A DNA stretch of 33,191 nucleotides from assembly GCA_002633005.1 (NCBI GenBank), contig NMRA01000366.1, positions 264,562 through 297,752 of the forward strand. The letters run 5' to 3'. Below, one piece after another: positions 3,728 to 33,191 of this stretch (positions are counted from its first letter, which is position 1; each line of letters starts with the position of its first letter). Source of the stretch: Phoronis australis (lineage: Eukaryota; Animalia; Phoronida). The notes under the pieces were generated by a model. The model made no database searches, was not told the origin of the DNA, and saw nothing but the letters and a program-made list of their open reading frames with translations. The translations under genes were made by a program, and so were the position numbers.

Positions 3728-4076
3728 GTGAAATTCTGGTTATTCCAGTGCCNCCCCCCCCCCCCTTAACTCAAAATTGCATACACTGTGCTCTATGCAC
3801 TAGGAGAGATGGCTATTTTCTTATACAGCGGCGGCGACAACATTCTAAATGGCAGCGACTGCAACGCTTACAACATCACGTAGACCGGCTACTATTGTTC
3901 GACTAGAGTAGTACTGTGGCTGTACATAGTACTCAAAGTGTTTCCTTAAACCAGTGCTTTACTGTACATTTGTGTATGCCATACGCAAAAAATGCATATA
4001 CACACCAGGTGCCGTTTTACGAAGAACGTGTAACTGTAGCCAAGAAACAAAATAAAATCGGTTTCGACATTTTTCG

Positions 4077-6784
4077 TCAATGAAAGATAGATGGTATTTT
4101 GACTTGATGAATCTCGTCTTTAAAATCGTCCTCTTTTTCTTTTTCCTTTTCTTCCGCGTGATAAGCCCACTCTGGCTCCATTTCGGACAACTCTTGGCGC
4201 TTTAACCGCTCCCGCTCTTCTTTTTCTTGTATAGCTCGCTTTTTCTTCTCAAGCTCTTTGTCTACTTTTGACTTCCATTTTTCAGCGTCTTTTAGATTTT
4301 GCTCTGCAAGTTTCTTGCGCCTTTCCTCCTCTGCTTTCAACCGTTTTTCCAAGTCCTGCTTCTCCTTTCTGTATGTTTTAATGGCTTCATTATCAACATC
4401 ACCTTGTGATGATGTCAGAAGCGCCCTAAGCTTAAAAAGTCTTTTCTTCTTTTGGTCCGCTGATTCCCCTTCCAAGCTATCGAGGTCACCAATTTGATAC
4501 TCTTTAATTCCACGAGCCTTCATAAGTTTTGCCACTCTTTTCCGTTTGTCTGCCTTACTTTCGCCGTCTAGTGTTGCCCATGATCCAATGCTAAACTGAT
4601 CGGCATCCATTTTGCTTGAAGTGCTCTCCTTTGCATATTTCTTTCTCACGTCTATGAAACGATACATTTTGTCTAAATACGATTCCCCTGCTAACGAGTC
4701 TAAATCGCTTTCATTGTACTTGACGCCTTTCTTTTTCAACATGTTCGTTATACGAGCTTTCTGTTGCTGGCTACTTTCACCTTTCAACAAAGTCCACGAA
4801 CCAAGCTCGCTGCTCAAAGCGCCGGCACCGGCTAATAACCCGTAATTGGCTCTCATTTTATGCAGCCTAACTTTCATTTCATGGCGTGTTTCTCCCGCGA
4901 GAGCCTCCAGGTCGTGTTCGTCAAATTTCAGTTTTCGCATTTGCATTTTCTTTGCTACCCTTTCCCTTTTCGCCTTCAGACTTTCTCCAGGCAAAGACGC
5001 CCAGGACCCTATGTCCTCTTCGCCCGATAAACCCATAGTTTGTCTGAGGAGTACGAGCCTTTCTATTCTGGCAAGGTGTGTTTCATCTCTCCTGTGATCT
5101 AGAACTCCGGTATCAAAATTACTAAATCCAATTTCTTTTAGTTTTTTCGATATTCTTTGCTTCAATTCATCGATAGTTTCTCCGTTTAGAGACGTCCATG
5201 ACCCCAATTCTCCCCTTGTTGTCAATCCGTATCTCTTCCTCAAGGCCACTAGCCTATGCTTCTTTTGTTCGGAAGTTTCACCAGGAATGTTTTCTAGTTC
5301 AGATCTGTCAAATCCTTTAATGCCTCGAGCATTCAGTTCATTTGCGACCCTGGCTATCTTTTTCTCAGGTGACTCGCCGTCTAGTGTTGCCCAGGATTCC
5401 ACGCTCCCATCATCGTCTTTCAGCGCCGGTGCGTTGTGAGCTGTCGACAGTCCATAATCAGACCTAAGGTCAATCAATCTGGCTTTTTTTTCGTCCGCTG
5501 TTTCATCCACTTCGCTATTCAATTCGTCAGAGTCGAACGACGAAAAACCCCTTTCTCGCATTTGCTTGGAAATGCGTGCTTTCTTTTGCTTTGCCGTTTC
5601 TCCTGGTTGCGTACCCCATGAACGTAAAGACCCTTCACCTGTACGGTGATGATGGGATTTGTTTTCAGTTCGTTTTGAGTAAATAAGATATCCACAGCAC
5701 ATGAGTAGTAGAATTCCAACAGCTCCAGCTGCTATCATTATGTACATAGTATAATCGCGTTTCTCATGTTCTCCATGAAACTTTCCTGCAATTGGATCAT
5801 AACCTTCAGTCCAGGTTCCTGTTTTGACATCAAACTCTTTGTGGTAATTTCCAGTTACAGGGTTCCAACCCAACTTCCATTTATTCTGACTCCAGTCAAA
5901 CATCCCAGCAGAATTGGGCGCCGTATTTGGATCTGCATAACCGTCTTTCCATCTTTGGTTAATAGGATCGTATCCAGGAAACCATTCACCATTAGTTCCA
6001 AACTGGTTGTTAAATCCTTCTTTCCATCTGCCGTTCATGATGTCCCAACCCGGGTTCCATTGATTAATTTCGTACAAAAAACCAGGGGAATACCTTTTCG
6101 TTTTGTCACTTGTACCTCTGTTAATTATAGGGCTTTTATATCCCGGCTCCCACTGCGAAGTTTGCTTGTTGTATCCTGGTGAAAATACTTTCAAAACGTC
6201 GTCATAGCCCTCCGATGATGTGTCTCCTTTCTCGCTGCGAGAAGCCAAATCCCAACCATCCCGCCACTGATTTTTCGCAAAATCGAAGCCCAGTGAGTTA
6301 CCTGGATTGTAATAATTGCCCTGCCATTGACCTTTGCTAGGATCGTACCCAGGATACCAATCCGCGAACTGTTCGTTCCAATTATCATTCATCCCTCCAG
6401 CTTCCATTGGTGATACGCCTTGAAAAGTGTTTGTACTGGGATTGTACCCGTCTGTCCATCTGTTTCGAGACCTACTCCAAAAGGGATTCCAAGAGTTTTT
6501 TACCATGTTAAACCCAGGATACAGTTCCCCTGTTTTGGGGTCAAAAGGACTCTTGAAGCCAGGTCTCCAAGCCCGGTTATCCTTATCATATCCTGGATAC
6601 CACCTCCTAGCAGGAACATTCCAACCTTCGCTGTACCTGTTTTCTTCTGGGATATATCCTTCTACGTATTCGTTATTACTGCCGGGTTTGATAGGAGAAT
6701 AAAAGTTGGGCTTCCATCGCTTTTTTACGTTGTCCCATCCGATAACGTAGTTGTTGGCTTTTGTGTTCCACGTGTTTTTTTCGT
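4077..6784 (-). CDS. Coding exon 4 (2.7 kb, terminal): extracellular aromatic/Gly repeats, TM helix (about 5747-5679), six cytoplasmic repeats, coiled coil
   Basis: Uninterrupted 902-codon frame. Acceptor ttgtcatttcag|AC is phase 1. TM segment MYIMIAAGAVGILLLMCCGYLIY is followed by basic KR. The ORF track's start at 6821 is a non-ATG codon inside the intron. Confidence 0.93.
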
Positions 6785-9700
6785 CTGAAATGACAATCAA
6801 TAACGATGTTGATGTAGACAAGGAAGGAAATTTTCGAAATGTCGGTTTTAGACAATGCTATCCATCTGGATGAAGCTGCAGTAATGTTAATAGTGTTACT
6901 GTCCTAGCTTTAAGCATCCTATTTACATGTAACTACGTTTTTCTCAACCTTTTCCACTTACACTAAATGTGCATGTGCTTGAGAACCCTATCTGTTTTGT
7001 TTTTAACTCTAGGTGAGGATTTATTTCCCACAAGGTTCAAAAGTAAACTTCTTGGCATTCAAGAGATGAGAGGCAAACAAAGTTCGTCAATAGATCTTTT
7101 TTCAATTGATTGAATATGACACCAGATTCACATGGGCCATCTGAAAGTTACTGGCCTTGCTGTAAATCCGCTGGCCAAGGGCCACCGGGCTGTTATGTTA
7201 TGGACATACACCCACGACGTCATAGACAGTAGTAACACAAGACGTGTTATGCAAGGCACAGTCCTCTGATAAGTTAAATGAGTCTCCGGACATAACATTT
7301 TGACCCACAAAGCTTGAAGCACTAACTTTGAATGAAACACGAAACACTAGTTTAAAGTGTTAAGAGACTCTTCAATTTTTCATATTTTAGTGGCGAGTTC
7401 TCGGATTACAAAGGCTTAAAAGAAAATCTCGGATGCCTTTTTGTAGGTGAGTGTAGCAGATAGATAGATTTGCAAGTGCGAAAGGTTTCAACCAGAAAGA
7501 GCAATCTATGTGAAACCCACTTTCTAAAAAATAAACACTTTATTTTTTTTTCTGTAATGCGCTGAGATAACTAAGGGTGTTTAAAGGCAAAGGCAACATT
7601 TTTCATGTCATCTTCAGTAAAAATAAGGTTCGTTAATTATCTCGGACATGTTTTTCAGTTAATTACGGCTTCTCGCAATGTAATTAATTACTCGTGCCAT
7701 ACTCCGGTAGTGACGTTTAGGGAATCGAGAACTACGCGCCAATTTTGTTCTGCGTTCGAGTTTACTGTGAGGATCTGTATCACCACTTCCTATCTATGAG
7801 CATTCTCCGACAAGTTAGGTTGTTAGAGAACTCAGATACAATGCATTTAGGGATTGTTTAGATTGTAGTAACTTGAAAATGGCTGGAGTCTCCTACCCAT
7901 TTCACAGTGACCGTAGTGACGTGAGTGACGGAGAATTTTGTTCACAGCAGTGGTGACGAAGAAGTTCTCATGGACAGTCAGTGGGTGGGTATACGTTTGA
8001 GCCCGAGTATAATGAGGCAGATTACGCACGGCCACAGGCAGCTGTTCTGAGGAATGACAAAGAGACTAAGGACAGACGTGGTGGAATGCCTTGGTGCAAA
8101 TGCACGGTGTGCACTGTTATGCCGACCTCAATGGAATGGCTATGCTGTTCAGAGTTCGACGAGGCCAAGCGACTACTGGAATCTGTATATACTTTCCATG
8201 TACCTTGATTGACACAGCGCATCCTGACTTAGGTGTCCATTTGAATGCTGGTGTGCTAGGCACCTTCTTTAGAAGTCACAGAGCTAACTCAAGGCGGTTT
8301 TTTTCCCATTCAGTGACTTTTCCAGACGTAGAGGGTGGTTAGCGTGTGATAACATTTGGCTTCTTTGTTAACAGCCAAGCACTGGTATGATAACAGGTAG
8401 GCCAATTATGTACCAGGCTTATTACAAACCACGTGTGAACACAGTCAAACCCAGAGCGGAATGGAAAACGTTCGGAAAGAATAGAATGTCATGACTTCGG
8501 TTGTAGCTAGGCGATTGTGGCGATTCAAAAATTAAACATGATCACTATTTGACGAGGATTTCAGAAATATTATTCGTTTATGTTCAAATACGTTATAACT
8601 TAACGTTTATTTTTAACAGCACGGCCCAGTCAGGCTACTGAGATTGGAGATTATAGAGCAATCATCGAACAAAAGAGAGCTGGCCCTCCAACCATGAATG
8701 CCAGAATGGAGTTAATCACTCGTGTAAGATATTGGCTACAGGGGCCATCTTCCCAACTTGTTATTGGGCTATAGAGTCGAACAAGTTGGGAGCAACGAGA
8801 ACACGCCATCATGTGGAGGAGATTTCCCAATGCAAAGGGTCTGGCGGAAGCCGTACGCGGGATGCGTAATTAAAAATATAGCCATTCTGATTGTAAATCC
8901 TGCTAATATGTCCAAATTTGTTACCCCACCATAGTTTCCTCGCAGCATTTAGCCTACGGCAGTAGTGTATTCCTCAAGATTTCACCTTCCGGTACTTTTA
9001 TGACTAAATAAATGCATCCTACTTCAGGGTTTTTGGTGCGAAATGGACGCCGCCACAATTTTGTTTTTCATTTTTTTTTTCAGGCGTTGTTTTGCAAGGA
9101 AATTCATCAATTCAGCGTACATCTCATTCGTAATCTGACGGTAGAAAATGCTGGCCACACACTCGGTAATTCTCCACCGCTTTGTAGGTTGCGTGGACGG
9201 GTAACGCTGCGTTCTTCACACGAACGAGTCAAGTACGGGGACGTGTGTAATTTTTCGGAAAGCGATGTAATGGTACACCCAGAGTGCGCGTGAGACGATA
9301 ATGAGTACATCCCGGTACGCAGCAACTGTGCGACATATTGACTGACTCGTAAACATGCAACGACCAAACTTAACACAACCGAGGTAGAAAAATGACTGAC
9401 GCGACAGCTCACACATTCAGACTATATGAAAAGAAAACTACCGTAATTATTGACTACCAAAACGTCACTTCCGGAGTTTGGCATGAGTGATTAATAGCAT
9501 TACGAGCAGCCTTAATTAACTGAAAATTATGTGTGGGATAATCCCCTGCCATATGCCACACGGTGGGTTGTGCAGGAGGAAGTTGACAACATGTTAAAGT
9601 GTGGAGTCATAGAACCATCTGATACACCCTACAATTCCCCGGTGGTCTTAGTGAAGAAGGACGGTTCAAATCGATTCTGCATCGATTTTCGTCGTTTGAA

Positions 9701-12700
9701 CGCCATTACCAAGTTTGACTCGGAACCGATGGGCAATCCTGATGACATCATGGCTGAGATCAGCAAAGACCAGTATTTTACGAAGATTGATCTAAGTAAA
9801 GGGTACTGGCAGGTCATTGTCGCCGAAGAATCACGACCCAAGACCTCGATTGTAGTACCAAGTGGTTGCTATAAGTTCGTAAAGATGCCATTTGGTCTGG
9901 TAAATTCGGCAGCGACCTTCAACCGCATGATGAGGAAGATGTTGGCAGAAGCACATAATACAGAGCATTATGTGGATGACATTCTTTGCCGTAATAAGAC
10001 CGGGACTGAACACCTTGCCACCTTGCGAGACACCTTCCAATGTGTGCGAGAGGCTGGACTAACGATTCGACCCACCAAGTGTTCGGTTGGATCTCGTTCC
10101 GTCGATTTCGTTGGACGTGGTTGGTGAAGGACACCTGGCAATGGATGAAGAAAAGCTGGGACGTATCCGAGATGCACCACGACCCAGAACGAAGAAACAA
10201 GTTCGTTCTTTTCTTGGGTTGGCTGGATACTGCAGGAAGTTCATCCCAAACTTTGCTGAAATTGCCGTCCCGATTACTGAGCTCACAAAGAAGAAACAGC
10301 CTAACAGCGTGCAATGGGAAGAAACTCAGCAGCATTCATTCGACACTCTTCGAGACCTGCTGACGAGAGCACCCATACTGAGATTACCTGATTTCAGTAA
10401 ACCTTTTATTGTTCAGACTGATGCGTCAGATACTGGTATAGGTTGTATTTTGTTGCAGGAGTATGATGATGGCAGGTTCCCAGTGGCATGTGCTAGTAAG
10501 ATATTGTTACCTCGAGAACGGAATTACTCCGTCATAGAGAGGGAATGTTTGGCTATTGTATTTGCCATCAGAAAATTTGCAAAGTACTTTTACGGTAAAG
10601 AATTTATCATTCATACTGACCATCAACCCGTGGCTTACATTCAAAAAAGTAAGTTAGTCAATGGACGCATCATGAGGTGGGCCGTGTTTTTGCAAAACTA
10701 TCGATTTAAGGTTGAAGCTATCAAAGGCTCAGAGAATGTTGGTGCCGATTACCTGAGTAGGTGAGAGTATTGAAGATTCATGGAAATTGGGTAATAGATC
10801 TAAGTGTTAATCAATATTTAAGTCTTCCATGTTGAGAAAATCTTAACAAGTATTTTCTTGAGGAGGGGCTTATTGTCAGAATAAATATTGATTGAGTAAT
10901 TAGTAAGAATAGATCCATTTTAAGTTGCCCATAATTTGTGAATATGTACTTTTAAATCATGGGGTCAGACTTGTTGACATGTATTTTAACGTCAAAATCT
11001 ATTTTTAGATGGTGTTTACAACTTTGGGTTCTGAAGTCAAAGTACTCTAGAGATTCTAGAATATTCTGAAAACAAATTGTAACAGCCAATAATATGAGTG
11101 GGTATGATCATGTGATTTTATTAGCCAATCACTAAATAAGTAGAATGTTACAATATGGGCTGAAATTAACAAGATAATTAGATGCGCTATAGTAGTTGAA
11201 GCATAAAGACTTGCTACAGTGTACAGAAGCAATTGTACAACAGAGCAATCTCGTGGAAGATTCTAGAAAGGATCTTGGCAAGGGCAAGGGTTAACGAACA
11301 GGACGTTATCTAAGAGCTTGTCACTTGCATTGTGGGTAGTAAGATACTACTTGAAGTCTTGCGTCATCAGCCAGAGACTGTGACCAGCAAGAAGAGTCGC
11401 GGGTAGAAGAAATTGCCTGCAAGTGTTGCATCACCAGACACGGTGACCAGCAAGTACACTGTCGCTATACAGTGTGTGTAGTTCGAAGATTCACCAGCAG
11501 GACAGACATCCAAAAAGTGGAGAGTCCTAGCTTGGATAGCAGATAAGACACTTGATTGTTTTGGTTGTTTGATTAAAGTAATCTTTAAAGAGGGCGCTAG
11601 CGTAGTTACTCTTTGTAGTAGATTACTTAATTAACAATAGGTTTCATTTGTCTAATTAGGGGTTATCATATAATAAATTAATTACTGGATTTGATCGTTC
11701 ACTCTCCATCGACGCACAATCTCAAAGCATAGCTACCTTTTAAACAAACCCACAGTCAATCGTCTGACACTGTCATTTAAACAATATTCCTGGCCAGGTG
11801 TACCTTTCTTAAAAAGTCAAAAGACTTGGGAGTGTTTAGAAAAAGATATTGTGAATCAGAGGAGACCATAATTCGTGCAAACTAGTCGTAGGTTTTGGCG
11901 TAAATCGCTCTTTAGACTCTGAGTAAAAAGCGTCCTCAGTTACGACATTTAGTGAAATGGTTCACCTGGGTTCTGCTTTACTAAGACTTCAATGTAGAGT
12001 TTCTGTGAGTGGAGTAACTTATAGTTTACGCGAATGAGTGTACAGTACCCGAAGTTCACACTCGATCAGCCCTAGATTAAATCCAGAAACCAAACGTAAA
12101 TCTCCAGCTCTCGAGTAAAAATCGAGACTTCGAGCTCAGACTAGAACTTATACTCTATAATTTTAAGTTGCAGTCATCCACCAAGCCATAGTGTAGAAGA
12201 ATTATTGTATTCTAGTACACAATAATAGAACCTTACCTTGAGTAGTACATGCATAAAAGAAAGTGAGAAAAATACTTTGAGTACGTTTTCGAGTAACAAG
12301 TTTAGACCCCGGTTCCATGCCTTTTAGTTTATTGAATTCTATCTCTAACATTTGAAATGACCGGATGTAGTTTCAAAGTAAATGTTAGTATTTCCTGAGA
12401 GCAATTTCAACCTGAATTTTTATCTGAGGTAATCGAAATCGCATATTGGTTTTGGTGGCGCCATTTTAAGTCCCACTAAGCAAATTAGATCAACGAGTTG
12501 GCATGACATATCGTCCACGTGATTTGGCCTCCGAAAACCGCTAAGTGTCTCAATGCATGCCCGTACCCAACATGCGACTTGTGGGCGCAGCTACAGGAAG
12601 CGGACCAAACATGGACTTCAAAAAATCGATGTAAACTACTACCCTCAGTCACGTGATTAACAGGGTTGAAACGATACATTGTACATCGCGAACTGATATT

Positions 12701-15700
12701 TGCCAGTTTCTTGGTTTCAACATCGCAGCTCAAAATGCAACAGTACAAGTTATCGTGACTTTCTTGTGTGCATAAAAAGAAGCAAGACAACTAAAGTAAT
12801 TTGACTAATATCTTGCATTAGAATGGGAGAGCTGTTGGGCTATTTCAGTAGGGGTGGGGCCTATTACTTTGTTTGCCCCACCACATTACATATTTAAAAT
12901 AGTGAATGAATTAGTTTCAAGGTGTTACGGGCCTAGTCACACAAGTAAAGCAAATTGCATGATGCCTGGTGTGTCTTCGTATGATTCCTGTCACATGATT
13001 GACCATAGGAAAGGATGGCATTCTATGTTCTTGGACTCGAATGTCATATCATTGGAATTACGCTTTCTTTGAGTTGTTTACTGGCCACATGTCATACCTT
13101 ATTTAGTCATCTGTATCGTCATTCTCCGGTGTATATCGTCGCTCTCCGGTGTATTTATATACCTCATTCCCTTATCTTATAGTTGCATATAATTTCATTC
13201 TCTCGGTGTATTTTGTTTTCTCTTACATAAGACACTTAGCCATTTTGTCTATTTATTTTGTCCTTTTCATTGATCATAATTTTTATATTTTAGCCTTATA
13301 TTATGTTTAGTCTTATCCGTTACCGCCACTACACTAGGGTGAGCTCACACCTGGCAGTAACCGTACCTCCCGTCGCCCTTCAGCCTTGGCCTCTGGAGTC
13401 AGGGTCGGGGTATCCGGCTGACAGTGTTTTGTAAGAATGTAAATCTATTCAATACAACTATTTACCCCTTTCTTATTTGGTTTGTCTCCGCGGATGGGTA
13501 TGAGCTCTCTTACACCATCTCTTGTGGCGATTTTTATTGGCCATCTTTCCAGTGATTATTATTTTACGTGTATATATTATTTTGCGTTCATATTTTGGAA
13601 CGTTATGATGTCACAATAAATTACCTTTATTTCGCCTATATACGGTATCCTTTATATCTCTGGAAATTGAGCTTGCAACGCAACTACCATTTTTGGGTCA
13701 TGTGTCGAACATAAAATGTATGTCTCAAAAAGATATTCATGATACGTTCTAGTGTAATACTACACTTACCGCCACATAAATGTCCTGTGCAATCCTCATC
13801 CTCCACCTCTTTTTTCATCAACTTAAGCGGACACTGAGTCGTTGTGCAGAAGATTCGGTGTCGTTCTATTTTACAATCCAGTTTACACGGCCCATATGCT
13901 GACCACCTGGTCCAAGCGTTGGCTGGAAGGAACGCAAGAAAATAAATAGCTTCATTTTGCCAATTGGTGATCTTCAATGTATTCCATGCTTTGTCATCCG
14001 TCGTTCTTTATACACAACAGATTTAGTACCCTCTGGGTGTTTCTTTTTTTCTTTTTTTGATTTACCGAAGCACACATTTAAACCTATTTTCGTATTGAAG
14101 CTTTTCAGTCTGCTTCACCAATCGTGTAGCGAAAATAGAAACAATGCCTGCCTGTGTGACAAGTGCTTGCAGTCCCCTTTTGTATTGTGGGTATTGTACG
14201 TTCACAAGTGGCATCCATTTGTTACGTCTTAAGCGATGTTGAAAATAAAATTTAGTTTAAAGGTGTGTCCTTTGTGTAATGATCTTCGTTAAGATTATTT
14301 ATCTCCTAAAAGCAAGTTCATGGTACTTTTGATTTAATTTGTTTACTACAAAATAGTGTGGAACTTTCTAGAAGACTGAGGTCAGAACAGTGATGATGTA
14401 ATTTGTTTACTACAGTATAGATTGGAACTTTCTAGAAGACTCTAGCATGACAGTGATTAATGCAGTCTGGAATAATCTAGAGACTAGTACATGTTTGTAG
14501 AATAATTGGGTAGGTTCCAGAAAGTTCTGGTATGTGCTTGAATTGATGAAAAGTTCCAGAACATTGCATTAGGCTATAAATACACAAGCACGGGTTTGTG
14601 TTAGTCAGATTAAGTCAGTTGAGTCCAGGAAGATCAAGTCGGGAGATCAAGAGAAGATCAAGTAAGTTCAAGAAATTTAATCAGAAGAACTACAGTGAGT
14701 TGCAGTGAAGAGAATCAGCAGTTACAGCGATGGCCAGTAAGGAGCCAGCTATAGAGACAGCAGGTTATTGAACCAACGAGTGTTACAGTTGCTGGAAGTA
14801 TCTCAAAGTTCATAACAAGTCAAGGCTTCGCAGCACTGGCTGGAGCATAAACAGACATTACGTCGGACGTTTTGTTTGAGTAGGCTTGTGAACGTACGGT
14901 CGGGATTAATAAAGGATTAACTCGAACCAGTCTTCAGTCAATCTTCGCACCGAAAGCTATTAGCACCGGTCTGTAACAACCTGCGCCCACCCAGACACGG
15001 GGAAAAACGTGGCAGTGTGCATATTATTAAAATTCGAAGAAAGACATGAATTCATTATCAAAATGCAAAACGTGTGCCAAAATTGCATATTAATACTAGT
15101 TTTTGTAATAAGTGCCACACGGTGGCCTCATTACTTGAGAATAAATTGATTGAATGGGAGTGATTGGTGACTGTCTTGTTAGAAATGCACCTCTTATGGA
15201 GTCGCAGTCGTGTAAAATCTGGTTGGACAGAATTCCTTGGGTTTTGAATTTTACTCAAATTTATTTCTCAAAATGACATCTTGACAATACTTGTAGACAT
15301 TTTCAAATTTGATACATTGTGTGTGACTGACATATTGCGAAAAATTGCATGAAAAAACTACCAGGGTTTACAATTCAATTTTTTGTGAGAACTGTTCACA
15401 TAGGATTGACATTACTTGAAAAGTATGTGTGCCCTTTTAGTCCATATTTTCGTAAAGTAGGGTAGCGAACACAACTTGAAGATGCATTTGTTGAGTAGCT
15501 AATTCTTGAAAATTTGACGAACCTACTTATATATCTTGGGAGTGAAGTTAAGTCCCACGGTGAGAGAATTTGGCTTAACAATAATACTAGTAAAACACGA
15601 AAATCGTAAAATGGTTGGAAAAAGTCTTAAAGGACACCAAATCCGGTTTAGGTCCGTTAAAATATATTAAAAACGACATTTGCATTCAGTTCCTTGAAAC

Positions 15701-18700
15701 GAAATAAGGCTCTATGAAGTGCGTCCAGGGGGTGCTCGGGGGGCTCGGCCGAGCCCCCATTTTGCGAAGATGGGCCAAAAGGCCCGAACAAAAGTCCACT
15801 AAAAGGGAGGAACTACCAAAAGCCGGCTGAGTACGCGCATGTATAACATCCATTTACTTTTGCAGCTTACGAAATTTAAATGATGGATGATACCATTCTT
15901 GGGGTTCTGAATTACGTCAAGCTATGTTGGCCACGTGTGCACGATCTCATTTCAGTAACATGCAGAGGCGTAGTTGCTTCTGTGGGTCTGTGGGTCGGCA
16001 GTATGACAATCTCCAATAATATTTCTGACTTTGTTGGGAAAAGAAAAAAAATAGGCGCACTAAGAGGAAGTTGATCTACAAGAGGTCCCTCACAATCAAT
16101 TTTTTTCACACGTGTTGTTCTGCCTTTCACCCAAGAAAATAAACGGCACAAAAGGCTATCCTAAATTTTGGTCGAACTCTGTCAATCTCATTATCGAGGT
16201 AGGCCTACATGTATTGAGTAAGTTGCGGGAAGTATTTTTGTGTACGGCACAACTCAAGTTAGAGGAGCTTCACTGACACGAAAAACGTTTGTTCTGTGAT
16301 GGTATTACTGCGTCATTTTATTCCCCCTTGAGAATGAAACAAGTTTGTTTCGAAATACCATGTCTCTTGGTCACTGGGTCAGTTGCTTTACCTATATTCT
16401 GTTGAGTGTCGAACTTCGTTCCGGGGATACGAAGGGAACGGGATAAAGGTTGTGAATAACGACAATTGTCGTGTATCCAATCAATTTTAACATGCATGTT
16501 AACTCAAGCCCTAATTTTTTTAAAATCTTGCAAAATGCTAGCATTTCCTTTTTATGCTTTTCTCTACAATTCAGTATTTCTGCGAATGCAATAACAGTCT
16601 TGATCTTCTCCGCCTGTCGCGAGAAACCTCCCGAGGGTATTACACCAGTATTTGAGATACGTACATTTTACGATGACTAGAACTTTCACGTGTCACGTGA
16701 CACTCACCTAGGCAAACAGCCTCGTTGCAGTCTCTTGTATCCTTGTTTGCTCCGGAACACATTCCGGGCCGAGGGCAGACACGGTGCCTGGTTTTCTCTC
16801 CACCGCCGCAAGGTCTGGTGCAGGGTCCAAACTCTCCCCATTTACTCCAATTGAGTGCTGTTGACATAAAGAAATTTAATTAATGAGATACCGTACCGTC
16901 TGCTATTTTGCTCACATGACTACGATGTGACCAAGTCAGATGCAGTTCGGAGTTCGAGTCAATAACACGCCTTCAATTACACTCTGACTCTGATAAGAAT
17001 TTTTTAAAATGAAATTAGTTCCCTTTTGAATGGGGCTATTCGGAGAATTCTCCTCGCCGTGTCGCTGCTGTACTAGTGGTGATTGAATTGCGCATGCGTG
17101 GCTGTCTGCATGTAAACAACTGGTAAAAGATGGAATTTTTATCAAAATACGTCGTCGCGCTAAGCCTTATTACTGCTAATTTCCCTGTTGCAAGTCTTCG
17201 AAAGATGGACACAAATTCCCAAAAGACCTAAGGTTACTATATTCGTGGACAATTGCGGTCAACAGCTGAGGGTCAACTAACTGACAAAAAGTGTGTAGAT
17301 GCTGAAGCCCCGTGTGTGCTCTATGATTATGCAGTTCAATTCGGAGACTACACAACATTACTTAGTAAGTTTTTAGCAATCAGTTTCTATCAACATCGCT
17401 CGGTGATGTTATCCCCTCCAGTTACCCCACTGAATAACAGGTTTATTGAGTGGAACTAAGTGTTTCTTTTTGGAAACTCACCCGATGCCGGGTAGGCGCT
17501 AGCAGCACATATTCATATTGTCCTGGGTGAGAGTGCTCCCAAAATAAGAGGTGTATGGTACGTGATGCACAGAAGTCAAGAGTGACTTTTTCACAGCAGT
17601 TTCTCTTCAAAATTATGCTGTTTCCAATAAAATTCTCTAGATGAGTGAGTTTCCTTATTTTATCGTGAACCCCACCCCCAGGACTACCAGCTCAGTCATC
17701 GAATTAACATGGATAAGCCTTAATTCAGTAAATGTCGTAACATTGCATTGGAAAAATTCGACACCTAGAATGAATTTTACTTGCTGAGATCAAAAGCACA
17801 TTTTAAGTGTCATGAAAAATACACATTGTTAAATCAGTTTTAGCCCGTTTCACATATTTTAATTCAGATATTAAATAAGACTTGGGTACAAAGGTTATTA
17901 GTTTCTACACATAAACATGAACATGAAACGTCAAGTATGTTCTGCCTTACAAAAGTAGTTTTGTCTTGTCTTTTCTTTTACAATTTGCTAATATTTCTAT
18001 TTTGTTACAGGCAAGAAAAAGCAACTGAAACCAACCGCCTGACCATCTATTTTACCGTTGGACAAAGTGAAAAGCAATCCTTCAGCAATAACCTGAGAGA
18101 ATTGAGCGTAATTCAGAAATTCAGCACCTGATATGCCTGATTATGGACTCCCTCGCAATGTTGTTTCTTTCTGTGCTTTTTCAGTTTGCCATTTGTTTTT
18201 AAATACACTGATAATTGTTTATTCTCGAATCTTGTGCATAGCAGATTCTTATCCANNNNNNNNNNNNNNNNNNNNNNNNNNNNNNNNNNNNNNNNNNNNN
18301 NNNNNNNNNNNNNNNNNNNNNNNNNNNNNNNNNNNNNNNNNNNNNNNNNNNNNNNNNNNNNNNNNNNNNNNNNNNNNNNNNNNNNNNNNNNNNNNNNNNN
18401 NNNNNNNNNNNNNNNNNNNNNNNNNNNNNNNNNNNNNNNNNNNNNNNNNNNNNNNNNNNNNNNNNNNNNNNNNNNNNNNNNNNNNNNNNNNNNNNNNNNN
18501 NNNNNNNNNNNNNNNNNNNNNNNNNNNNNNNNNNNNNNNNNNNNNNNNNNNNNNNNNNNNNNNNNNNNNNNNNNNNNNNNNNNNNNNNNNNNNNNNNNNN
18601 NNNNNNNNNNNNNNNNNNNNNNNNNNNNNNNNNNNNNNNNNNNNNNNNNNNNNNNNNNNNNNNNNNNNNNNNNNNNNNNNNNNNNNNNNNNNNNNNNNNN

Positions 18701-21700
18701 NNNNNNNNNNNNNNNNNNNNNNNNNNNNNNNNNNNNNNNNNNNNNNNNNNNNNNNNNNNNNNNNNNNNNNNNNNNNNNNNNNNNNNNNNNNNNNNNNNNN
18801 NNNNNNNNNNNNNNNNNNNNNNNNNNNNNNNNNNNNNNNNNNNTTTCATGAAATCAACTTGAAGGGACTTCGTGAAGGTTAAGAATTACCTCACCATGCT
18901 CTTTTCCCCAAACATGTAGTATTACCTGTTATTTCCACACATTCAGTTGTACCAAATATTACAACCCCCCATGCCAATCCCCCCTCGGGACCTGAATAAG
19001 TAATTTAACAAAATGACTTTAAAAACAGCTGTTCGTTTTCAAAGGCTTTGTTCGTTGTCTACAATATTGAAAGTAGGCGTTGACAACATATCTGCACTGG
19101 ATGGGAAGATCTCGTTGGTTAGCTGCACTCAAATGCTAAAAACCAATTTTTGTCCATTCAGGGACGGTGCAGAAGCGATGCATATCTCCTCTGCACGGTA
19201 CAAGCCTTCAAACCTAAAAACCAAAGGTTACGTGAAAACAGACGTGATAGATTTCCATTTCAACGTGTAATAGATTTCCAGAAGACATATGATAGGGAGT
19301 AAACAAATAGTCTAATGCAATGGATATTTATCACTCACGTACCCTTTGCCATTGGGCTTGGATTGTAATCTTAACTCATTAACCTGTATCGAGTTGACAG
19401 CATAAACATTCAGCATTGATGGATGTAACTGTCACTGATAAACTTTTAGAAATCATTCCAAACAATAATAATGCTTTGATGTACGAAAAGATTCCGATTG
19501 CTACGTCAAGTATCGTATCACATATCACAACATACAAAGATTAACCAGACTCTCGCTGGCGACTGCCTGCCGCGAAGTCGACGTCGGCGAGTACCTCAGT
19601 TAACAGGCATCGGTAGAATAATCATGGAATAATCGTTAAAATAATTTCAAACCTTACCTTTGTATGAGGTCGTGCTTACTTCCTCTCATATAGAAGCACC
19701 CTTTTTACGCAATCTCAGATTCAGTTGGCACGGCTGCAAGCCATTTCATCATGTATTTAAAGGGCTCGCGAAATCGAGGCTGTTAATCTATCACCACTAG
19801 TACACCCACGCCCTCTAGTTATTGTAGATTTTCCGAATAGCCCCATTGAAGAAGGTTACGGAGGTAAGTAGCTTACTCATTTATTTTACTGTGATGAAAT
19901 CAAGAGGATCGTATGAAAAAACGGGAAAACGAGTGGTTCGAATGCCACCAGCTCAGAGGGGAGCCATAGCTTATTGGCCAGTACTGAACCCTACCAGCAC
20001 TGCCTCCCGTATCAGAAATTGCCCGTCATCACTGCTCCCTGCCAGCACTGCCCGCTGATAGCACTGCCACATGTGCACTACGACATCGTTTTTGGATTTT
20101 TTGTATGCATCGTCAAAATTAGTGTAGTGAACAGATGGAAGATATCATATTCCAGGGATAGAGTTCTATGATGTCAAATAAGTCCAGTATTGTTTCCTGC
20201 TCAAAACGCTTCTAGATTGACTGGGGGTCTTCGTACACTAGCAGTGACGTCAGAGTGTGAGCCCTGGGAACCAGGCGTGCGTTCAGTAGACGCTAGGACC
20301 TACGCTAGGACCTAGCTAAAATCAAGTCAAAGTCACGTGTTCTCATTTAAAATACACGGCAATATCTCTCGTAATCTCGCAAAGTCTTGCTTTTTAGCGA
20401 GGTCCTAGCGTTACTGAACGGGAGGCAGGTTAAGTCCAGTATAGATGCAAAATGTACTCCATGTTTTAGCTACTTGATGACTTGTTTAAGTTACATAGCT
20501 ATTGGGTGTTGTTTCTCAAATGTTCCAATTTTACATGCGCGGCTATCAAAATAGGGCTTTCTGTTCTGTGGGCCTGTGTCTTATCGTGGCGGAACAGCTT
20601 GTGTATCTAAGCGACATCTAGAGCTATACTGGCGGGAGTCATATACTTCCAGAAGGGTCACCCATGCCGGGCAGGTTTAAAGGCAGAGATCAGATCAAAC
20701 ACACCCTTTAATCTCCTAAGGTTGGTTCGCAATGGCAACGGTGGCTGCCAGTCTCTCGTCGTCCTGGTCGCCTTGAAAAGCGGAACGATGAGTAACTATT
20801 ATCTTCCTTCATTTGTACACGTATCCATCGGCCCAAAGTACAACAAACAAGCAAACAAGATCATTGGAGTGCTATGCTCACTAGTCAGTAGTACACAAGC
20901 TGTTCCGTTTTTTAGATGCGTAGTATACATCAATTCCTAACCACGGAGTCATCCAATTACATAGAGGAAATTTTATTATACTTAACAGTATTACTTGATA
21001 AGGATGACTACAACAGGAAGATGACTGATCTACTATCTAGCGGGTAGTAGGCCCTACAAGGAAGTAAAATATGACAAGACCAAGAGAGTAGAAAGAAAAA
21101 TCAAATCCCTCCTGAAAACTGTAGACAGTTCATTACCACGTGACACACTCCAGAGAATCAACCCAAACAACACAAAAGCCCCGCACATGTATGGTAAGCC
21201 TGAGATACACAAATCTGATATGCCGATGAGACCAATTATAAGCAACATTGGTTCTCCTTGCCACCAACTAGCTAGATTCCTCAACAACATCATATCCCCA
21301 CTAGTTGGAAAAACTGACTCGTACGTAAAGGACTCGAAGCACTTCGTGTCAATGTTGTCATCAGTCAGCATTACACCAAATGACACCATGGTGAGCTTTG
21401 ATGTCGAAAGCCTATTCACATGTGTACCAACAGCAGAGGTTCTCCCATTACTCAGGTCAAAGTTAGAACATGACCACAAGCCATCAGAGGATGTAAACCT
21501 CCCAATAAGCTCCATTCTGGAATTAGTGACATTCTGTGTCAATACCACCTACTTCCAATACCAAGACAAGTTTTACGAGCAGACACAGGGAATGGCAGTG
21601 GGTTCACCACTATCACCAGTCTTAGCTAACTTTTACATGGAGTGGTTTGAACAAACAGCTCTCAGCTCAGCTAACAAACCCCCGAAGATGTGGAAACGAT

Positions 21701-24700
21701 ACGTTGATGACACATTCACAATATTCAGCCAAGACTCAGAAAATCCATCAGACTTCCTTGACCATCTGAACAGCATAGCGCCTACAATTAGATTCACAAT
21801 GGAGGAAGAGACAAATAACAGTCTCTCATTCCTAGACGTACTAGTGACTTGTTGTTGAAGGACAGTTAGAAAAGGCGGTCTACTATACGAAGACCCACAC
21901 AGGACGATACCTCGACTTCAACTCCAACCACACCAAAGGAGTCAAGAAGGATATAATAAAATGCCTTGCATCAAGATCGCAAGAAATCTGCAGTGATACT
22001 TCACTCCAAGCAGAAATGATCAACCTGACGGAGACATTCGAAAGAAATGGCTACCTAAGGGATTTCATCAAGTCGGCTTTAACATCGCAGAAGAAAGACA
22101 AAGTGGCAGAAGAACGCCCACTGCAGACTATGTTCTTACCGTATATACCCGGAATAACCGAGAACCTAGGACGCATATGTAGAGAATTTAAAATAAGAAC
22201 GGTGTACCGCCGCTCAGACACACTGGGTCGGCAATTGACAAAAGTCAAACCAAGAACTTACATGGGAAAAAAGTAAAATGTCATCTATGAAATCCCATGT
22301 GAATGTGGTGAATCGTATATCGGTGAAACATTAAGACCGCTGGAGACAAGAATTGCTGAGCATAAGAGGTGTTGTAGAGAAGGTAATACCTCATCAGGAG
22401 TAGCAGAACACATGTCGTCGAAACAACACAACATCCAATGGAATAACATCCGAATACTTGACAGTGAAACAGGTTGGACCAAGAGAAAGATCAAGGAAGT
22501 CATGTACATGAAAGTACAAGGCAATGTCTTCAGTTAGTCAAGCAAACAACCAAGTGACACCTGGCTCAGTCTACTTAGGTAGGTTTAAGTATGATAAAAT
22601 TCCCTCTAAGTAATTGGAAGACTCCGTGGTGTAGTGGTTAAGGTGCTGGACCCGAATTATCTGTAGTTTCAGAAGTCGTGGGTCCAAATCCTGCCTTGCA
22701 CAAAAAAAATCACACCATGAGTGTACCACGTATCCGTGCTCGTTCTTCTAAGAACGCGGGAACACCTGACGATGGCCGGAGAAGAGTCCGACCGAAACGT
22801 CGTGACTGTGTATATAGACTAGAGGTCGGTGTAAATAGACCAAGAGATTTTAATAATAGTCGTAGTATGTATATTTCACAACTGAGATATCGGGATTACA
22901 TAACAGTCTATGAAATTTAAACAAAGAAGGACTTGCCCAGAGGCTCTCACTTATTAAGTTAACTCTGACTTCGGAAAAAGTGTCGCAAACTAACAAAAGG
23001 TAATATTCATCCTCAACACAATTCCTCGAGCATAATGTACACACTCTGTCTTGACATATAACATTTACGTGACGACCAGTTCCAACTGCCAGTCTATGGT
23101 TTGCACATCGAAAACGTGTAAAACTTTGCACGAACACTCTTGAAAGATTTTCAATTTCTAAATAGTTTTCATGTTTACCGAAACCTTTAAATTTTTGTAG
23201 TAGTTTAACTTAGAATCAACATCGGATTGCCATCTTTGCAAAGCACAGTCCTTAACCCGTTGAGAAAATATTTACAAACGACTCTTGACACGTGACTCCT
23301 TGGTTTACCCAAACATCATAGAAACCATACATTGACAATAAATTGCGGACTGAGCTTGCCCAATTACACATATGTCTACCATTTTCATCTAGTCTGTACA
23401 AAATGTTGTAAGCAGCCCTTAGATAACGTCCCTGTGGCATGTTCAAAATTTTAAATCAGTATTTGAAACAGCTAACAAAGTATCTCGTAAACATAGGGTA
23501 TCTGCCATTTTCACTCAATGCTGCAGCGTTAGAGCAAGAACTGCCAAGTCCCAGGGTCCATTTACAAAATTTTAAATGATTTTTTGTAAACACTCGTATT
23601 CTTTAAAATCCAAAATCTCGGCACCATAACACAATGTTGGGTACACCAGTTTATCAAATAACTGAAAGGCAAATGATGGGGGCATATCGCGACATCTGCG
23701 CCTGTAGTTTCAAAACACGTGATGCAGTTTTATTTGCTTGACAAGATAGTTTTTGTCGTTTTCGCCCATGACAATTTAGGTGTGATAAAAACACCAAGCT
23801 ATTTATAATGAGATACAGCATCAACCTGCTGTTTGTTAGAAGGACTACGTACACGTCGTTTTTCCAGCCTTCGCATTGGTCTGTTGTTATCACGTGCCTC
23901 GAGTTTGGTCAGCTCTCGGCTCTTATAGGCTGATGATTGTCACGTGTCTTTAGGGGCGTTTTTCTTTGTTATTGTAACCCCGCTTTCAATTCACGTCGTT
24001 CCGGCCACATTGTCGTACGTCAAAAACTCATTCAATTTTCCCACCCTCTTCCTCCCAGTTTTCGTCATTCTCTCGTACTTCCACGTGGCCGGCGCTTTTT
24101 AATGCCCATCTTACCAGAGATTACCTATTATACTTATTTACGTATATTCATTTTATTGTAATTGTACTAGTCATAATAAATGACCTTATATCGCATACAT
24201 CAGTCTCCTTTCATCTCTGGTAACGAGTTTGCGACGCACGTATCATTTATCTATTATCCGCGACATATGTCGATCATAAAAAACATTTCTCATAGTGTCT
24301 TAAGGGACCTCCATTTCTAAACACAATTATTTTGGTTTCCTTTAAATTCACAGCCATAACCCATGAATCTCAATAATCATTGAGACAATTCAACATACGT
24401 TACAAGTTAGACGCTGTTAGAAAGCACAAAACCATGTCATCTGCATGTAACAGTGAATTAATATTTGTAACATGCTCATCTAAGTAGATGCTATTCATGT
24501 CACAACGTGAATTGAGTTTTTCTAAAAACTCATTGAGATACAAAACAAATAGCAGATGGCTTATCATACATCCTTGACGAGTACCAATAGTGCAATTAAA
24601 TAAGTCTGTTAAACCATCACGTGTTTTAACACATGATCTCCACTTGCTATAAATGTTCATTGATCGCAGAATTGATAATGTATTACCATGAAAATTAATT

Positions 24701-27700
24701 TGCATTAGTCTGTGAAAAAGTAAAATATGTGGTACTCGATCAAAAGCTTTTGAAAAGTCAATAAATGACAACCTTTTTGTTGATGTGTTTCTGACATATC
24801 GCATACAAAGAAAATATATGACTCACAGTCGCGTAACCCTTGCGGAACCCTGCTTGGGCTTCAAAAAAGTGACCATTACTTTCTGCCCAGTTATACAATC
24901 GGTTATTCAGTATTCTGGTAAAGAGCTTTCCAATAGCCGACAGGAGCGAAATATCTCTATAATTATTCTCATCGTGCACGTTTCTTTGTTTAAACAACGA
25001 AATTAACATCGCATCACACGAAGTCTAGGGATACAAACCTGACTGGAAAATTACATTGAACAACTTCTGCGGAATCGGTAAAGTTGAATGTTTTGGTACA
25101 CTTAAACATTTCAAAAGTAACTCCATCAATACCAGCGGCCTTGCCATATGAGAGCGGATGATGGGTAAAACGGGATCATTCCGTAGCCTTGAATAAGCGG
25201 CTGAGTGCTTCGTGGCCATCGAATCCTGTCGCACCTTCCTTGGGGCGCCAAATATCTATCTCCGGCTTGGTGATACGGAAACCCTAGAGGACTGGCCATG
25301 CTGGTTTTTGAGCCTTAAAACAGTTTTGGCTGACAGTAGGCAATACGGAGCTTTGCTGGCTAAGAATTCTGGGGTCTGCCGCAGTGCACAGAGTAGCGTC
25401 TGTTGTACTAGGGGACTAGACTCTGCATGCTTAGCCCCGGGGGGTAGCGAGGTTCTGGCACTGGAGGTAGACATACCAAACCTTGGATAATTCATCTGTG
25501 GGGGCGGACTCTTACGCACGGAGCACTTGAGGAAACTGGGAGAGGGCGCTGTCGAACCTAGTGTTGGATCCCATAAGAACGTAATGCTGTAAGACCTAGA
25601 GGTCGTGCCTTGTTGCCACCTTATGGATGAGCTGAACGTGGACACGGACTTGAATCATGTATCTCTACACATAGACAATCAGCGTTTTTCTGTCCCTGCT
25701 GGTCGGGGCTCAACAGACCAAACCCAAGCACGATTGAATGTGGCTTCTTGATATCAGCAATCCAGATCTTGACGTGACAAAGGTCATCAGTTTGTGAGAA
25801 CAAACCAAGTGCACAGTACCCCCACCAAGGGTCTAACCTTTGTAATGGGGAAAATGCCTGGTTAGTGCTTAGGCAGTAGACTTCAAGCCTTACTCAGGTC
25901 TTGGCAGGGTCCTTTTTAAGATCAAGGCAAAGACGACTAAGCCCGTAGATAGGAAGTTTGATAATCTCGCCACGTCCACTGGGACTTCTGAGGTGGACGA
26001 CTCATCCACGGGAACGGGTGTGACGAGGTGGATAACACCAAGTCGACCGATGTGGAAGAAGGCGACGAAGCTGCCAAAGACCGTGTGGTGGCGAAATTGG
26101 TAATTTCTGGCCTTCATCCAGTTGTGGTAACAGGTGATCAGTCGCTTGCTAACGCCCCCACCTTAGTCGACCACAGTGCAACTTTTGCAGTGTCGGGAGA
26201 TCCTAGTGAGATGATGTATGTGAGTGACTGATGACATACTAGCACGCTTAATGATGAAGAGCAGTTAGTATTTTTATATTATCATTATGATGCCTTTTCT
26301 GATAGAGCCGTGATCTCAAAGTTTGGCAAATAAACCTGCATCATGCCAGCAATCCATCTGTTCTCCTGCAGCAAACTCTGAATAAAGAGACTTGCTATTT
26401 GCCTTTGATTCAGGAGCCACATTGTAAGGATAATGTCATGCTTAATGTTTCTAGAAATGCCAAATCATATACAGCACGGATGGACACCAATTTAAGGCCA
26501 AGGGCAACTGTTTTGGTATCCATAGACGTATCGTCAGGACCACTGCCAGACCTCTGTGACAGAGACTTAGTAGCTATAGCATGTGACCTTACTGGTCCGA
26601 ATGGACTTGTCCGCACTATTTGGCGGGTTTCGGCATACATGCCGGGTGACTCAGTTGAGGAACCTCCACCTGAGATGGTGCAGCACGTTACACAACATTG
26701 TAGCAACAATGGCATTCCATTGGTAATTGGCTACAATGCTAATCCACATCATAACGTGTGGAACAGTACTGACACAAACTCTAGAGGTGAATTCCTGTTA
26801 GAGTTCATTGTCAGCACTTCGCTGAATATTTGATATGCAGGCCACGAACCTACTTTTGTTGTTCAGAATCGCCAATAGATCCTAGATCTTACTTTGACTA
26901 GTATACGTGCAGATCTGGTGAAGAACTGAAGAGTTGACCCCTTGTCCTCCCTCTCGGATCACAGATATATCAGGTGTGAGATGGCCATTTTGTGTTATCC
27001 CTTTCTACACTGAGTACAGGGATATCAAGAATGCTGATTGGAACATCTTCGATTAAAAATGTTCCAACTCACTTGATAACCTCGACAGTGGAACTCTCAA
27101 CACTTTTACTGATTTTGATTCGCTTGCAAATAATGTCACAACTGGACTGCTTACTGGTATACCTAATCGCCAGATATGGTGTACCAAAGAGCTTGCATCT
27201 GTTCAGAAGACAAGAAAAGCTCATCGGATTGTCCAGTGAGCAGACACTGAAAAGGACTGGAAAGCCAACGGTCAGGCAAACATAATCTTCAAGTCTACTA
27301 CACGTAAGGCAAAAAGGAGCTCGTGGAGAAATTTTTGCCAGCAATCTTCAAGTTTGTCAGCAACGGCAAAACTTGATCTGAAGAAGGACAAGACTACTCA
27401 GTTGGAGACTGTCCAACGAAAAGACGGTTCATTCACCAGTTCACCTGGTGGAACTCTCAAGGCCATGTTGGATAAACACTATACCGGCAGTGTGATTCCC
27501 GGTAATGAAATTAGAGAAGTAGTACGTTACGGGCAAGAACGGCAAATCCATATGAACCTTCTTGATGAGATGGTTACTACTCATCTTGTTAAACTTACCC
27601 TCGTGTCTTTTAAACCATGGAAGGCCCGCGGGCCTGATATTTCCCGAGATGCTACAGGAAGCAGGAACCAAGCTTTTCCTGTCTAATCTTTACAAGGCCA

Positions 27701-31010: not shown

Positions 31011-31398
31011 CCTGCAGATCGTGGTGGACGGGGTCGGAATGGTGCTTCACATTTTGTTCAGAAACGTATGTCGCTGATAATTTCTTGAACATTTCACGAG
31101 GAGATTTTGCAGCCTAAAACGTGTGACTACAGCAAGCAATACAGAATTGGATTAGTATACACGTGCAGTGACGTAGTTTTTGTCTAAATCAGGCTTCATG
31201 AAGTCACATGAAGCAACAGCCTAAGAATGAAACGTTCTGACTATGTGAAATTAGTTGCCTTCCAAACGACGTGATAAATGCACTCAGAATTAGTACGTGG
31301 CTGCAGCTTTCGCTTACTACGGTAAATATAAGAACATTCGTCAGCTACCAGTGCTGGATTCATCCTTTGTGGCCGTGGCCACGACATTTTTGTTAGGG

Positions 31399-31797
31399 AA
31401 CCCATACCAAAAAAGCCTTCCTGCAAACACTTGCCGCAAGCTTGCCGCAACGTTGCGGCAAGCTTGCTGCAAAAGTTTCTGCAAACCAGCCGCAAACACG
31501 TAGAATCAACTCTGACCAAAAAGTGGATGCAAATTTCCTGCAACCCAGCCGCAAACATTGCCGCAAGCTTGCGGCATGTTTGCCGCAAACATGCAGCAAA
31601 CTTTTACCATGCAAATGAAGTTTGCCGCAAGCTTGCAGCAAACATCTCTATGTCCTTATATGGAACAGTTCCTGCAACCCAGCCGCACACATTGCTGCAA
31701 GCTTACCGCAAACATTTCTATGTCCTGATATGGAACAGTTCCTGCAACCCAGCCGCACACATTGCTGCAAGCTTACCGCAAACATTTTCATGGGGTT
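31399..31797. repeat. MITE-like repeat built from GCAAGCTTGC-type palindromes, with a 70-bp tandem duplication
   Basis: Ends AACCCAT...ATGGGGTT. Repeated TTGC(C/T)GCAAGCTT(G/A)C units. 31639-31708 is duplicated at 31709-31778. Confidence 0.75.
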
Positions 31798-32559
31798 ATA
31801 TAGAAGTTTCTGCGAACCACCAGAAAAAATATTGGATGCAAGACTACAACATACTTGAATTGTGGCATGAATAATTTAATGTAGAAATGTCAGCTGACAA
31901 ATACATAATTTTTATTGCGGGCCCGCTTGTTGAAGCAAGAAAATACACAATCAGCTGCACACTGGATTTAACATGATAATTTTCAATATGATGTACAGTA
32001 TAATGACTAGAAATTAAAACAAAATCAGATGACAATGAATAACAGAAACTATAAAAGTGTCTATAGTGGCAATTAGTAATAATACTTGTATTACAATCAA
32101 AATTGTGTCTTGAGAGAACAACTTGAATGTATGCAAGCTTTAATTACAATATACCGAGATGTTTTCTTCTTAACGCACGACAAAATCTATAATTATTGCA
32201 ACAATGATGTTATTTACCTGACTAAACTAACATCAGCAACACTGAGCGTTGAAATGCACCCAACGGGGTGTTTATTAGCATTGAAAATGGCGCAAAATAT
32301 GTCGAATGCCAGTGGAGAAAACCATGAAATCTGACTTTCCCCCGTGGAAAGGCATGCTTAGAACACCATGTCGAGCATATTTAATCATTTTATTTTAAAT
32401 TACCTCATTACTTGTCAACAGAAAAAAATCACTCTTAACAATTATAAACATATTTATTTTTCCCATGTTCATCTAAAATACTTGAAAACTGTCGAATACT
32501 TCATCGATTACTATTTTTGCTTCCCAATATGGTTTCATGATACATCAGTCTACTGAATG

Positions 32560-33191
32560 GGCTATCATTGAACTTGTAGGCCTTTGTTGAAATTTGCAAT
32601 ATTTCGACTATAGCGATATCATCGAATAACATCATTCATTTATCTAAGGCATCAACCATAAATTATACCATTCTATTCTACAATATTACCATGGTGTTGA
32701 AAAGAACAACTACAGAGGTTATATCCAGTTATTACCATTCTAGTGGACGTTCTAAACACATTCTACTCCAGACTAATCTGCATTACAGCAATCGGAGGTG
32801 TTCCATAGGGTTCATATGGGATGATCGCTAGTGTTTTCATCCATGTTTGTTCGACTCAACCTTGAGATGCTGTGTACGCCATTTGTTCCAGTGTTTTCAA
32901 CTCAAACTTGTTGCCTCGTAACCTCTGCAGTGTCTCTGGCTTTCATCAAGTACATTATGTCACTCAATATTCACAAACCTAAAATATGAATGTCATTTCA
33001 CTTTCCACAAAAAAGCATTTGTGATAGCATTATTAGAATCTCAATTACGTTTTAAGTCGAACTTTTGCTCTTCTGCTCATGTATGAACAGACAGTTAAAC
33101 TTGTGTTCAATAGTTTGACTGCAGACTGAGAATGCGTATGACTGAAGGTGATGGCAGTTAAAACACCTACCAGTAGTTAAATATACAATAT
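32560..33191 (-). mobile_element. Possible highly decayed LINE endonuclease region
   Basis: Minus-strand MDENTSDHP near 32820-32845 resembles the APE SDHxP motif. Little else is readable. Confidence 0.35.

Follow-up and report, generated by a model that had tools for sequence, protein, structure and literature searches.

Six copies of an undescribed, predicted helical repeat in the predicted cytoplasmic tail of a thrombospondin type 1 repeat protein from Phoronis australis

The thrombospondin type 1 repeat (TSR) superfamily contains secreted and transmembrane proteins that take part in protein-protein interactions (PMC5446238). The apicomplexan TRAP and TRAP-related adhesins and the cnidarian TM-TSR-only proteins have a signal peptide, one or more TSRs, one membrane helix, and a cytoplasmic tail (PMC5262382, PMC5446238). 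Two helical motifs also need to be considered here. In STPR proteins, which have repeats of strictly 23 residues arranged head to tail, the helix owes its stable start to Glu1, Thr/Ser2, and Arg9, and contacts to DNA phosphates come from Arg6 and Arg9 (PMC4856987). The splicing factor hPRP4 uses Phe122, Gly123, Pro118, Arg113, Arg132, and Leu133 (PMC13543012). Here, we analyse a 33,191-nucleotide stretch of Phoronis australis DNA, which we will call the window (GCA_002633005.1, contig NMRA01000366.1, positions 264,562-297,752 of the forward strand). It encodes a predicted single-pass TSR protein whose tail contains six copies of a repeat that we could not match to any described family. All coordinates are window positions, and the gene and its repeats are on the minus strand.

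Six repeats in an expressed gene

The repeat array runs from 5633 to 4407 (-), within a long open frame at 4077-6821 (-). It has six units with an aligned core of 62-63 residues. The units, counted from the Ser of Ser-Trp, start at 5621, 5396, 5201, 5006, 4799, and 4583 (-), with periods of 75, 65, 65, 69, and 72 amino acids. They are 28-47% identical to each other, and nine core positions are invariant: S5, W6, G11, E12, R20, L38, E44, R52, and R57. When we built a hidden Markov model from five of the copies and scored the remaining one, each of the six copies scored 59-79 bits, as compared to 7-10 bits for the best of its 500 shuffles. The initial annotation had placed six repeats with an invariant SW at these starts, and all six are recovered. 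It had given their span as 4416-5633; the start of the array at 5633 holds, while the last copy reaches about 4407.

Each unit contains two related halves (A and B) of about 32 residues. The half-motif [GD]E[ST]x6R[ILVMF] occurs 12 times, whereas 5,000 shuffles average 0.014 occurrences and never exceed 1, with the reservation that the pattern was picked from the same data in which it was counted. Successive half-motifs are 32, 43, 32, 33, 32, 33, 31, 38, 31, 41, and 32 residues apart. Glu1, Ser/Thr2, and Arg9 (E-[ST]-x6-R) are present in all 12 halves. Motif position 6 is K or R in 9/12 halves, DET replaces GE[ST] in two, and the residues ahead of the G or D are P, V, D, P, N, R, P, A, K, A, D, and E. 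The two copies of GE[ST]xxx[KR]xxR per unit that had been proposed are therefore present as 12 halves, with a looser consensus at these two places.

To define the gene, we used three raw RNA runs (X5, X6, and X7) from one study with the same species label. We took about 18-19% of each run and mapped these reads to 3760-18250 and 18844-33191. The reads give a four-exon gene that lies wholly inside the window and forms a single frame of 1,025 residues, with 67, 150, 153, and 2,708 coding bases per exon and with every intron in phase 1. Across bins from 4244 to 6663, the depth on the repeat exon is 104-159 in X5, 90-130 in X6, and 0 in X7; the rough expression level is 60-70 fragments per kilobase per million. 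In X5 and X6, the first mates of the repeat-exon reads are almost always on the plus strand, which fits minus-strand RNA in the usual stranded libraries. Two splice joints were read directly, both with CT..AC ends: 6784/13770 (111 and 62 reads) and 13922/16708 (61 and 74 reads). Loose read ends at 30944 (72 reads in X5 and 34 in X6) match the start of the exon at 16857 (exon 2), and molecules stop at 31103 (11 and 5 molecules), which is the 5' limit of exon 1. The gene is spliced and is strongly read in two of the three samples from this study, and it has no reads in the third. With its GT-AG introns, TSR exons, and retroelement-like frames, the window resembles animal genomic DNA. The features of the gene are as follows.

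30944-31103 (-): exon 1, with the 5' leader, ATG at 31010, a 22-residue signal-peptide-like segment, and a phase-1 donor (RNA read ends; hydropathy)
16708-16857 (-): exon 2, a TSR with six Cys, phase 1-1 (Pfam, PDB, read joint)
13770-13922 (-): exon 3, a divergent TSR-like module with six Cys, phase 1-1 (WxxW and Cys pattern, read joint)
5745-6784 (-): exon 4, predicted extracellular part, about 345 amino acids (composition, word counts)
5676-5741 (-): exon 4, single predicted membrane helix, from residue 472 (hydropathy)
5445-5633 (-): repeat 1, 63 amino acids (alignment)
5220-5408 (-): repeat 2, 63 amino acids, the copy used for modelling (alignment, AlphaFold2)
5025-5213 (-): repeat 3, 63 amino acids (alignment)
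4833-5018 (-): repeat 4, 62 amino acids (alignment)
4626-4811 (-): repeat 5, 62 amino acids (alignment)
4407-4595 (-): repeat 6, 63 amino acids (alignment)
4077-4406 (-): C-terminal 109 amino acids and stop codon (composition)

Predicted fold, origin and look-alikes of the unit

The repeats have no match above the cut-off in Pfam, NCBIfam, or PHROGs, and no match among 1.84 billion sequence representatives; searches with the model of the unit found no matching fold. Because the libraries that we searched lack even this protein itself, these results do not prove that the repeat is an orphan. The examined passages of PMC9265791 and PMC6278862 describe nothing similar; supplementary protein tables of invertebrate transcriptome or proteome papers might list the gene as a generic TSP1 entry. 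A single unit (repeat 2), modelled by AlphaFold2 with the six copies as the alignment, has a mean predicted local distance difference test score (pLDDT) of 81 and a predicted template modelling score (pTM) of 0.56. The modelled helices are at residues 14-27, 35-38, and 46-59. The prediction for the unit is a pair of long helices separated by a short one, packed by Trp6 and by conserved Leu, Ile, Phe, and Tyr residues, and an STPR-like E-[ST]...R cap is predicted at the start of each long helix. The initial annotation had suggested a new small helical domain, whose novelty would be lost with a significant match to a Pfam or InterPro repeat. As far as this is testable, the suggestion agrees with the helical model and with the empty family, sequence, and fold searches, including Pfam. 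We conclude that this is a real, expressed repeat that is undescribed, on a single-pass TSR protein, which is itself a known kind.

The units probably arose in two steps. Mean identity is 42% within A halves, 35% within B halves, and 23% between A and B. Profiles of the B halves score the A halves above shuffles in 6/6 cases (at most 1/1,000 shuffles reach them), and profiles of the A halves score the B halves above nearly all shuffles in 5/6 cases; the exception is B3, whose score is reached by 128 of 1,000 shuffles. (Cutting the halves at a shared motif biases this comparison.) Also, the Trp of A and the Leu of B occupy equivalent places, and a Gly and a hydrophobic residue end most halves. 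These similarities suggest that a module of about 32 residues was probably doubled first, and that the pair was then multiplied to six. For all 15 pairs of units, synonymous sites are saturated (pS of 0.82, range 0.59-1.00), while non-synonymous divergence is not (pN of 0.43, range 0.38-0.49). This shows that the copies are old and are under purifying selection on the protein.

The initial annotation overlooked STPR, whose signature is, by sequence, a closer look-alike of the halves than PRP4 is. The top PDB match for the profile of the unit is FMBP-1, a DNA-binding STPR protein, but this match is non-significant (E = 0.18). Half-unit profiles give weak matches over 13 residues to FMBP-1 (E = 1.1-1.2) and to ribosomal eL8 (E = 0.98). 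No STPR family was listed in Pfam scans of the array, the units, or the halves. What is shared is tandem basic helices that open with Glu1, Thr/Ser2, and Arg9. STPR repeats are 23 residues long and 60-80% alike, whereas the Phoronis halves are 31-43 residues apart and alternate between A and B. STPR proteins are nuclear, and their helices lie end to end along DNA, in the major groove of AT-rich sequence; the Phoronis units have a hydrophobic linker with Trp or Leu and are located in a membrane protein. We rejected STPR membership: the signature is present in all of the halves, but the 23-residue period is not, and the profile match is non-significant. Instead, the halves appear to share the helix-start device of STPR without being STPR domains.

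A faint likeness to PRP4/PRP18, perhaps due to convergent helix capping, had been noticed previously, and our results bear this out. The Pfam model for PRP4 (PF08799) matches one of the six units, repeat 6, with 14.9 bits as compared to a cut-off of 25 (E = 0.02). The whole array scores 14.6 bits (E = 0.024), and none of the 12 halves matches. The motifs share Leu-x-Gly-Glu...Arg-hydrophobic, with the same spacing as Gly123...Arg132-Leu133 of hPRP4, and here the motif is repeated 12 times in the tail of a membrane protein. In contrast, the anchor Phe before the Gly (Phe122) is absent from 12/12 Phoronis halves, and equivalents of Pro118 and Arg113 are absent as well. Because of these absences and the sub-threshold score, we rejected PRP4/PRP18 membership. 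Among the matches listed by the fold searches with the unit, there was no PRP4 chain, although a match may lie outside these lists. Given that the STPR period fails and the PRP4 anchor Phe is absent, the likeness to both is probably convergent. Since one helix-start motif is seen in three unrelated proteins (STPR, PRP4, and eL8), convergent helix capping seems to be the best reading.

The rest of the protein and the surrounding sequence

In residue order, the protein has a signal-like start, a TSR, a TSR-like module, an aromatic region, a membrane helix, the repeats (residues ~508-916), and a charged end. The segment in exon 1 reaches a hydropathy of 2.93 over 10 residues and was called signal-peptide-like by hydropathy only. 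Exon 2 encodes a TSR: it scores 36.6 bits against Pfam's TSP_1, as compared to a cut-off of 21.6 (E = 5.4e-9), and it matches thrombospondin-1 in the PDB (E = 3.4e-9). One TSP_1 domain above the Pfam cut-off places the protein in the TSR superfamily. For exon 3, the only Pfam match is to TSP1_CFP_C, under the cut-off (E = 0.029), and its WxxW and six-Cys pattern was read by eye.

The ectodomain part of exon 4 (~345 amino acids) lacks Cys and is rich in Trp, Tyr, Gly, and Asn; W, Y, and F make up 18.6% of its residues. It contains at least 12 words of the form [WYF]xxG[YWF][DN], often 11 residues apart, versus a mean of 0.22 and a maximum of 2 in 2,000 shuffles. These words are predicted to form beta-hairpin repeats. 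Homolog searches with 5745-6784 gave no match, so within this protein the hairpin-like region appears to be another repeat without a match.

The best 19-residue hydropathy in the membrane stretch is 2.35, at 5741, and basic residues follow it. (A Cys-Cys pair at 5697-5692 (-) closes the inner end of the helix and is a possible palmitoylation site.) Because a signal-like exon and TSRs precede the one hydrophobic stretch, we predict type I membrane topology, which puts the repeats inside the cell; the same order of exons supports the initial annotation's description of the repeats as cytoplasmic. The tail after the membrane helix is about 530 amino acids long. Its last 109 amino acids are 56% K, R, D, and E and are predicted to form a single alpha-helix or a coiled coil; Pfam gave nothing under E = 2.9 for this segment. 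We searched the tail for an NPxY motif and found none, and no catalytic family matched.

Several other features of the window were seen. The 5' leader contains a 44-codon upstream frame at 31092-30958 (-), in another phase and overlapping the main ATG, and a minimal ATG-stop frame at 31052 (-); these might be involved in translational control. There is a minor splice from exon 1 (30944) to an acceptor at 30001 (-), with 5 reads in X5 and 3 in X6 as compared to 72 and 34 for the main path. A (CTA)n-type microsatellite at 30769-30918 lies just past exon 1, and there is a candidate AATAAA at 3002 (-). The introns contain broken frames that resemble reverse transcriptase, RNase H, or endonuclease at 9531-10764 (+), 21187-21858 (+), 24400-24804 (-), and 26399-29390 (+), which may be retrotransposon remnants. 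A near-identical short element is present in two copies, at about 1640-1690 and 19770-19820, whose translations match on both strands. Reads pile up in both directions on such intronic repeats. A joint at 17363-18010 with non-canonical ends and the first mate on the minus strand was found in all three runs (47, 31, and 78 reads). It probably reflects transcripts of a repeat located elsewhere in the genome.

Possible function and comparison with single-pass TSR proteins

The reading that we tentatively favour, while giving it somewhat less than an even chance, is that the basic helices of the tail form a multivalent array, and that this array anchors a likely adhesion protein to acidic structures at the cell cortex. 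Outside the cell, the TSRs and the aromatic hairpins would bind matrix, glycan, or a partner cell. Inside, each unit would present two capped basic helices toward an acidic target, and the six units together would give avidity for a repeating target at the cortex, which might be the surface of the cortical cytoskeleton (or of a filament) or phosphoinositide lipids. This would tie the protein to the cortex without an adaptor, and the charged C-terminal helix could be a spacer or a dimerisation arm. We suggest this because the long helices are net basic in 11/12 halves (sum of +47), the linkers preceding them are net acidic in 9/12 (sum of -24), and the STPR-like Arg9 is present in every half. 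The gene structure and expression, the identity of the TSR, the purifying selection, the model of the unit, and the lack of a catalytic family or NPxY motif are also consistent with anchoring. The multivalent docking scaffold proposed in the initial annotation is plausible for such a tail.

Several points weigh against the anchoring proposal. The net charge of the repeat region is only +8 overall, which may mean that the acidic linkers cancel the charge of the helices inside each unit, and the invariant Arg20, Arg52, and Arg57 may be structural. The pTM of the unit is modest and comes from an alignment of just six rows, and the whole tail modelled from one sequence has a pLDDT of 49. The topology is based on hydropathy alone, the searches found no homolog, and the membrane in question could be that of a secretory granule, not the plasma membrane.

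If so, the granules or vesicles would belong to a single specialised kind of cell, such as a gland cell or a gamete, where the lumenal part would organise cargo and the tail would dock motors or factors for sorting or exocytosis. The same type I topology is compatible with this, and expression is strictly on or off (about 90-160 in X5 and X6, 0 in X7). The tail has two YxxPhi matches and one dileucine-like match, but chance yields such short motifs, and they are not conserved over the six copies. Also, surface and matrix proteins are where TSRs are typically found (PMC5446238). We consider the granule location to be unlikely. A purely mechanical role seems less likely still: the units would be marginally stable domains in series that unfold under load, as a spacer or shock absorber, with no repeated ligand. 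The linkers do vary in length (period of 65-75 amino acids), which suggests a beads-on-a-string arrangement, the charged helical end might serve as a stiff rod, and the conserved positions are mainly in the hydrophobic core and the helix caps. But three invariant Arg and basic helices in 11/12 halves exceed what a spacer needs.

The remaining two alternatives build on the look-alikes. The tail might bind nucleic acids as STPR does, either by tethering RNA or DNA at the membrane or by entering the nucleus after cleavage. FMBP-1 and eL8 are among the best PDB matches, and K/R at position 6 and R9 are the phosphate-binding positions of STPR. However, none of these matches reaches significance, and they span no more than about 13-17 residues. 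The halves are spaced at 31-43 residues, where STPR requires exactly 23, and the prediction for the unit is two helices paired through a hydrophobic core, in contrast to helices placed end to end. There is also no sign of cleavage. This leaves nucleic-acid binding quite improbable. The least probable alternative, in our view, is that the unit descends distantly from a domain already known, be it PRP4/PRP18, STPR, or some other small helical domain, through a relationship too remote for our searches. The PRP4 scores for repeat 6 and for the array, as well as the G-E...R-L spacing that is the same as in hPRP4 (PMC13543012), would fit such descent. These scores are under the cut-off and come from 1/6 units and 0/12 halves, the residues corresponding to Phe122, Pro118, and Arg113 are absent, the listed fold matches include no PRP4-type chain (though one may lie beyond the list), and the unrelated eL8 has the same helix start.

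A bolder version of the anchoring proposal, which we think is unlikely to hold in full, is that the unit is a new two-fold pseudo-symmetric helical domain from a duplicated 32-residue module, and that the array is a lineage-specific invention for gripping cytoskeleton or lipid. Together with the aromatic ectodomain, which is equally unmatched, it would define a new type of adhesion receptor, through which a single specialised cell type would link matrix to cortex with no adaptor proteins. Repeat proteins restricted to one lineage are common among animals with poor annotation, and our case is one gene in one genome so far, which limits its weight. Still, a tail of ~530 residues with six constrained units, predicted to fold and without a match in any library, would enlarge the set of known small domains, and it would show how a simple capped helix can be built up into an intracellular scaffold within a lineage. 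At 63 residues, the unit is small enough for direct nuclear magnetic resonance or crystallography, and the on/off expression makes the expressing cell type easy to find.

Single-pass TSR proteins usually act through short tails and adaptors. The Phoronis protein has the TRAP-type layout of signal peptide, TSR, and one membrane helix, with the signal peptide and the helix called by hydropathy only. The tail of TRAP is short and acidic and has a penultimate Trp (PMC5262382), whereas the Phoronis tail has ~530 amino acids and its last Trp is 30 residues from the end. The missing penultimate Trp and the lack of a short acidic tail rule out TRAP itself. Unlike the known single-pass TSR proteins considered here, the Phoronis protein is encoded by an animal gene with phase-1 TSR exons and has no VWA domain; it has six tail repeats that are predicted to fold, and a region of aromatic hairpins separates its TSRs from the membrane. 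Judging from its domain content, the nearest known kind for the whole protein is a single-pass TSR protein.
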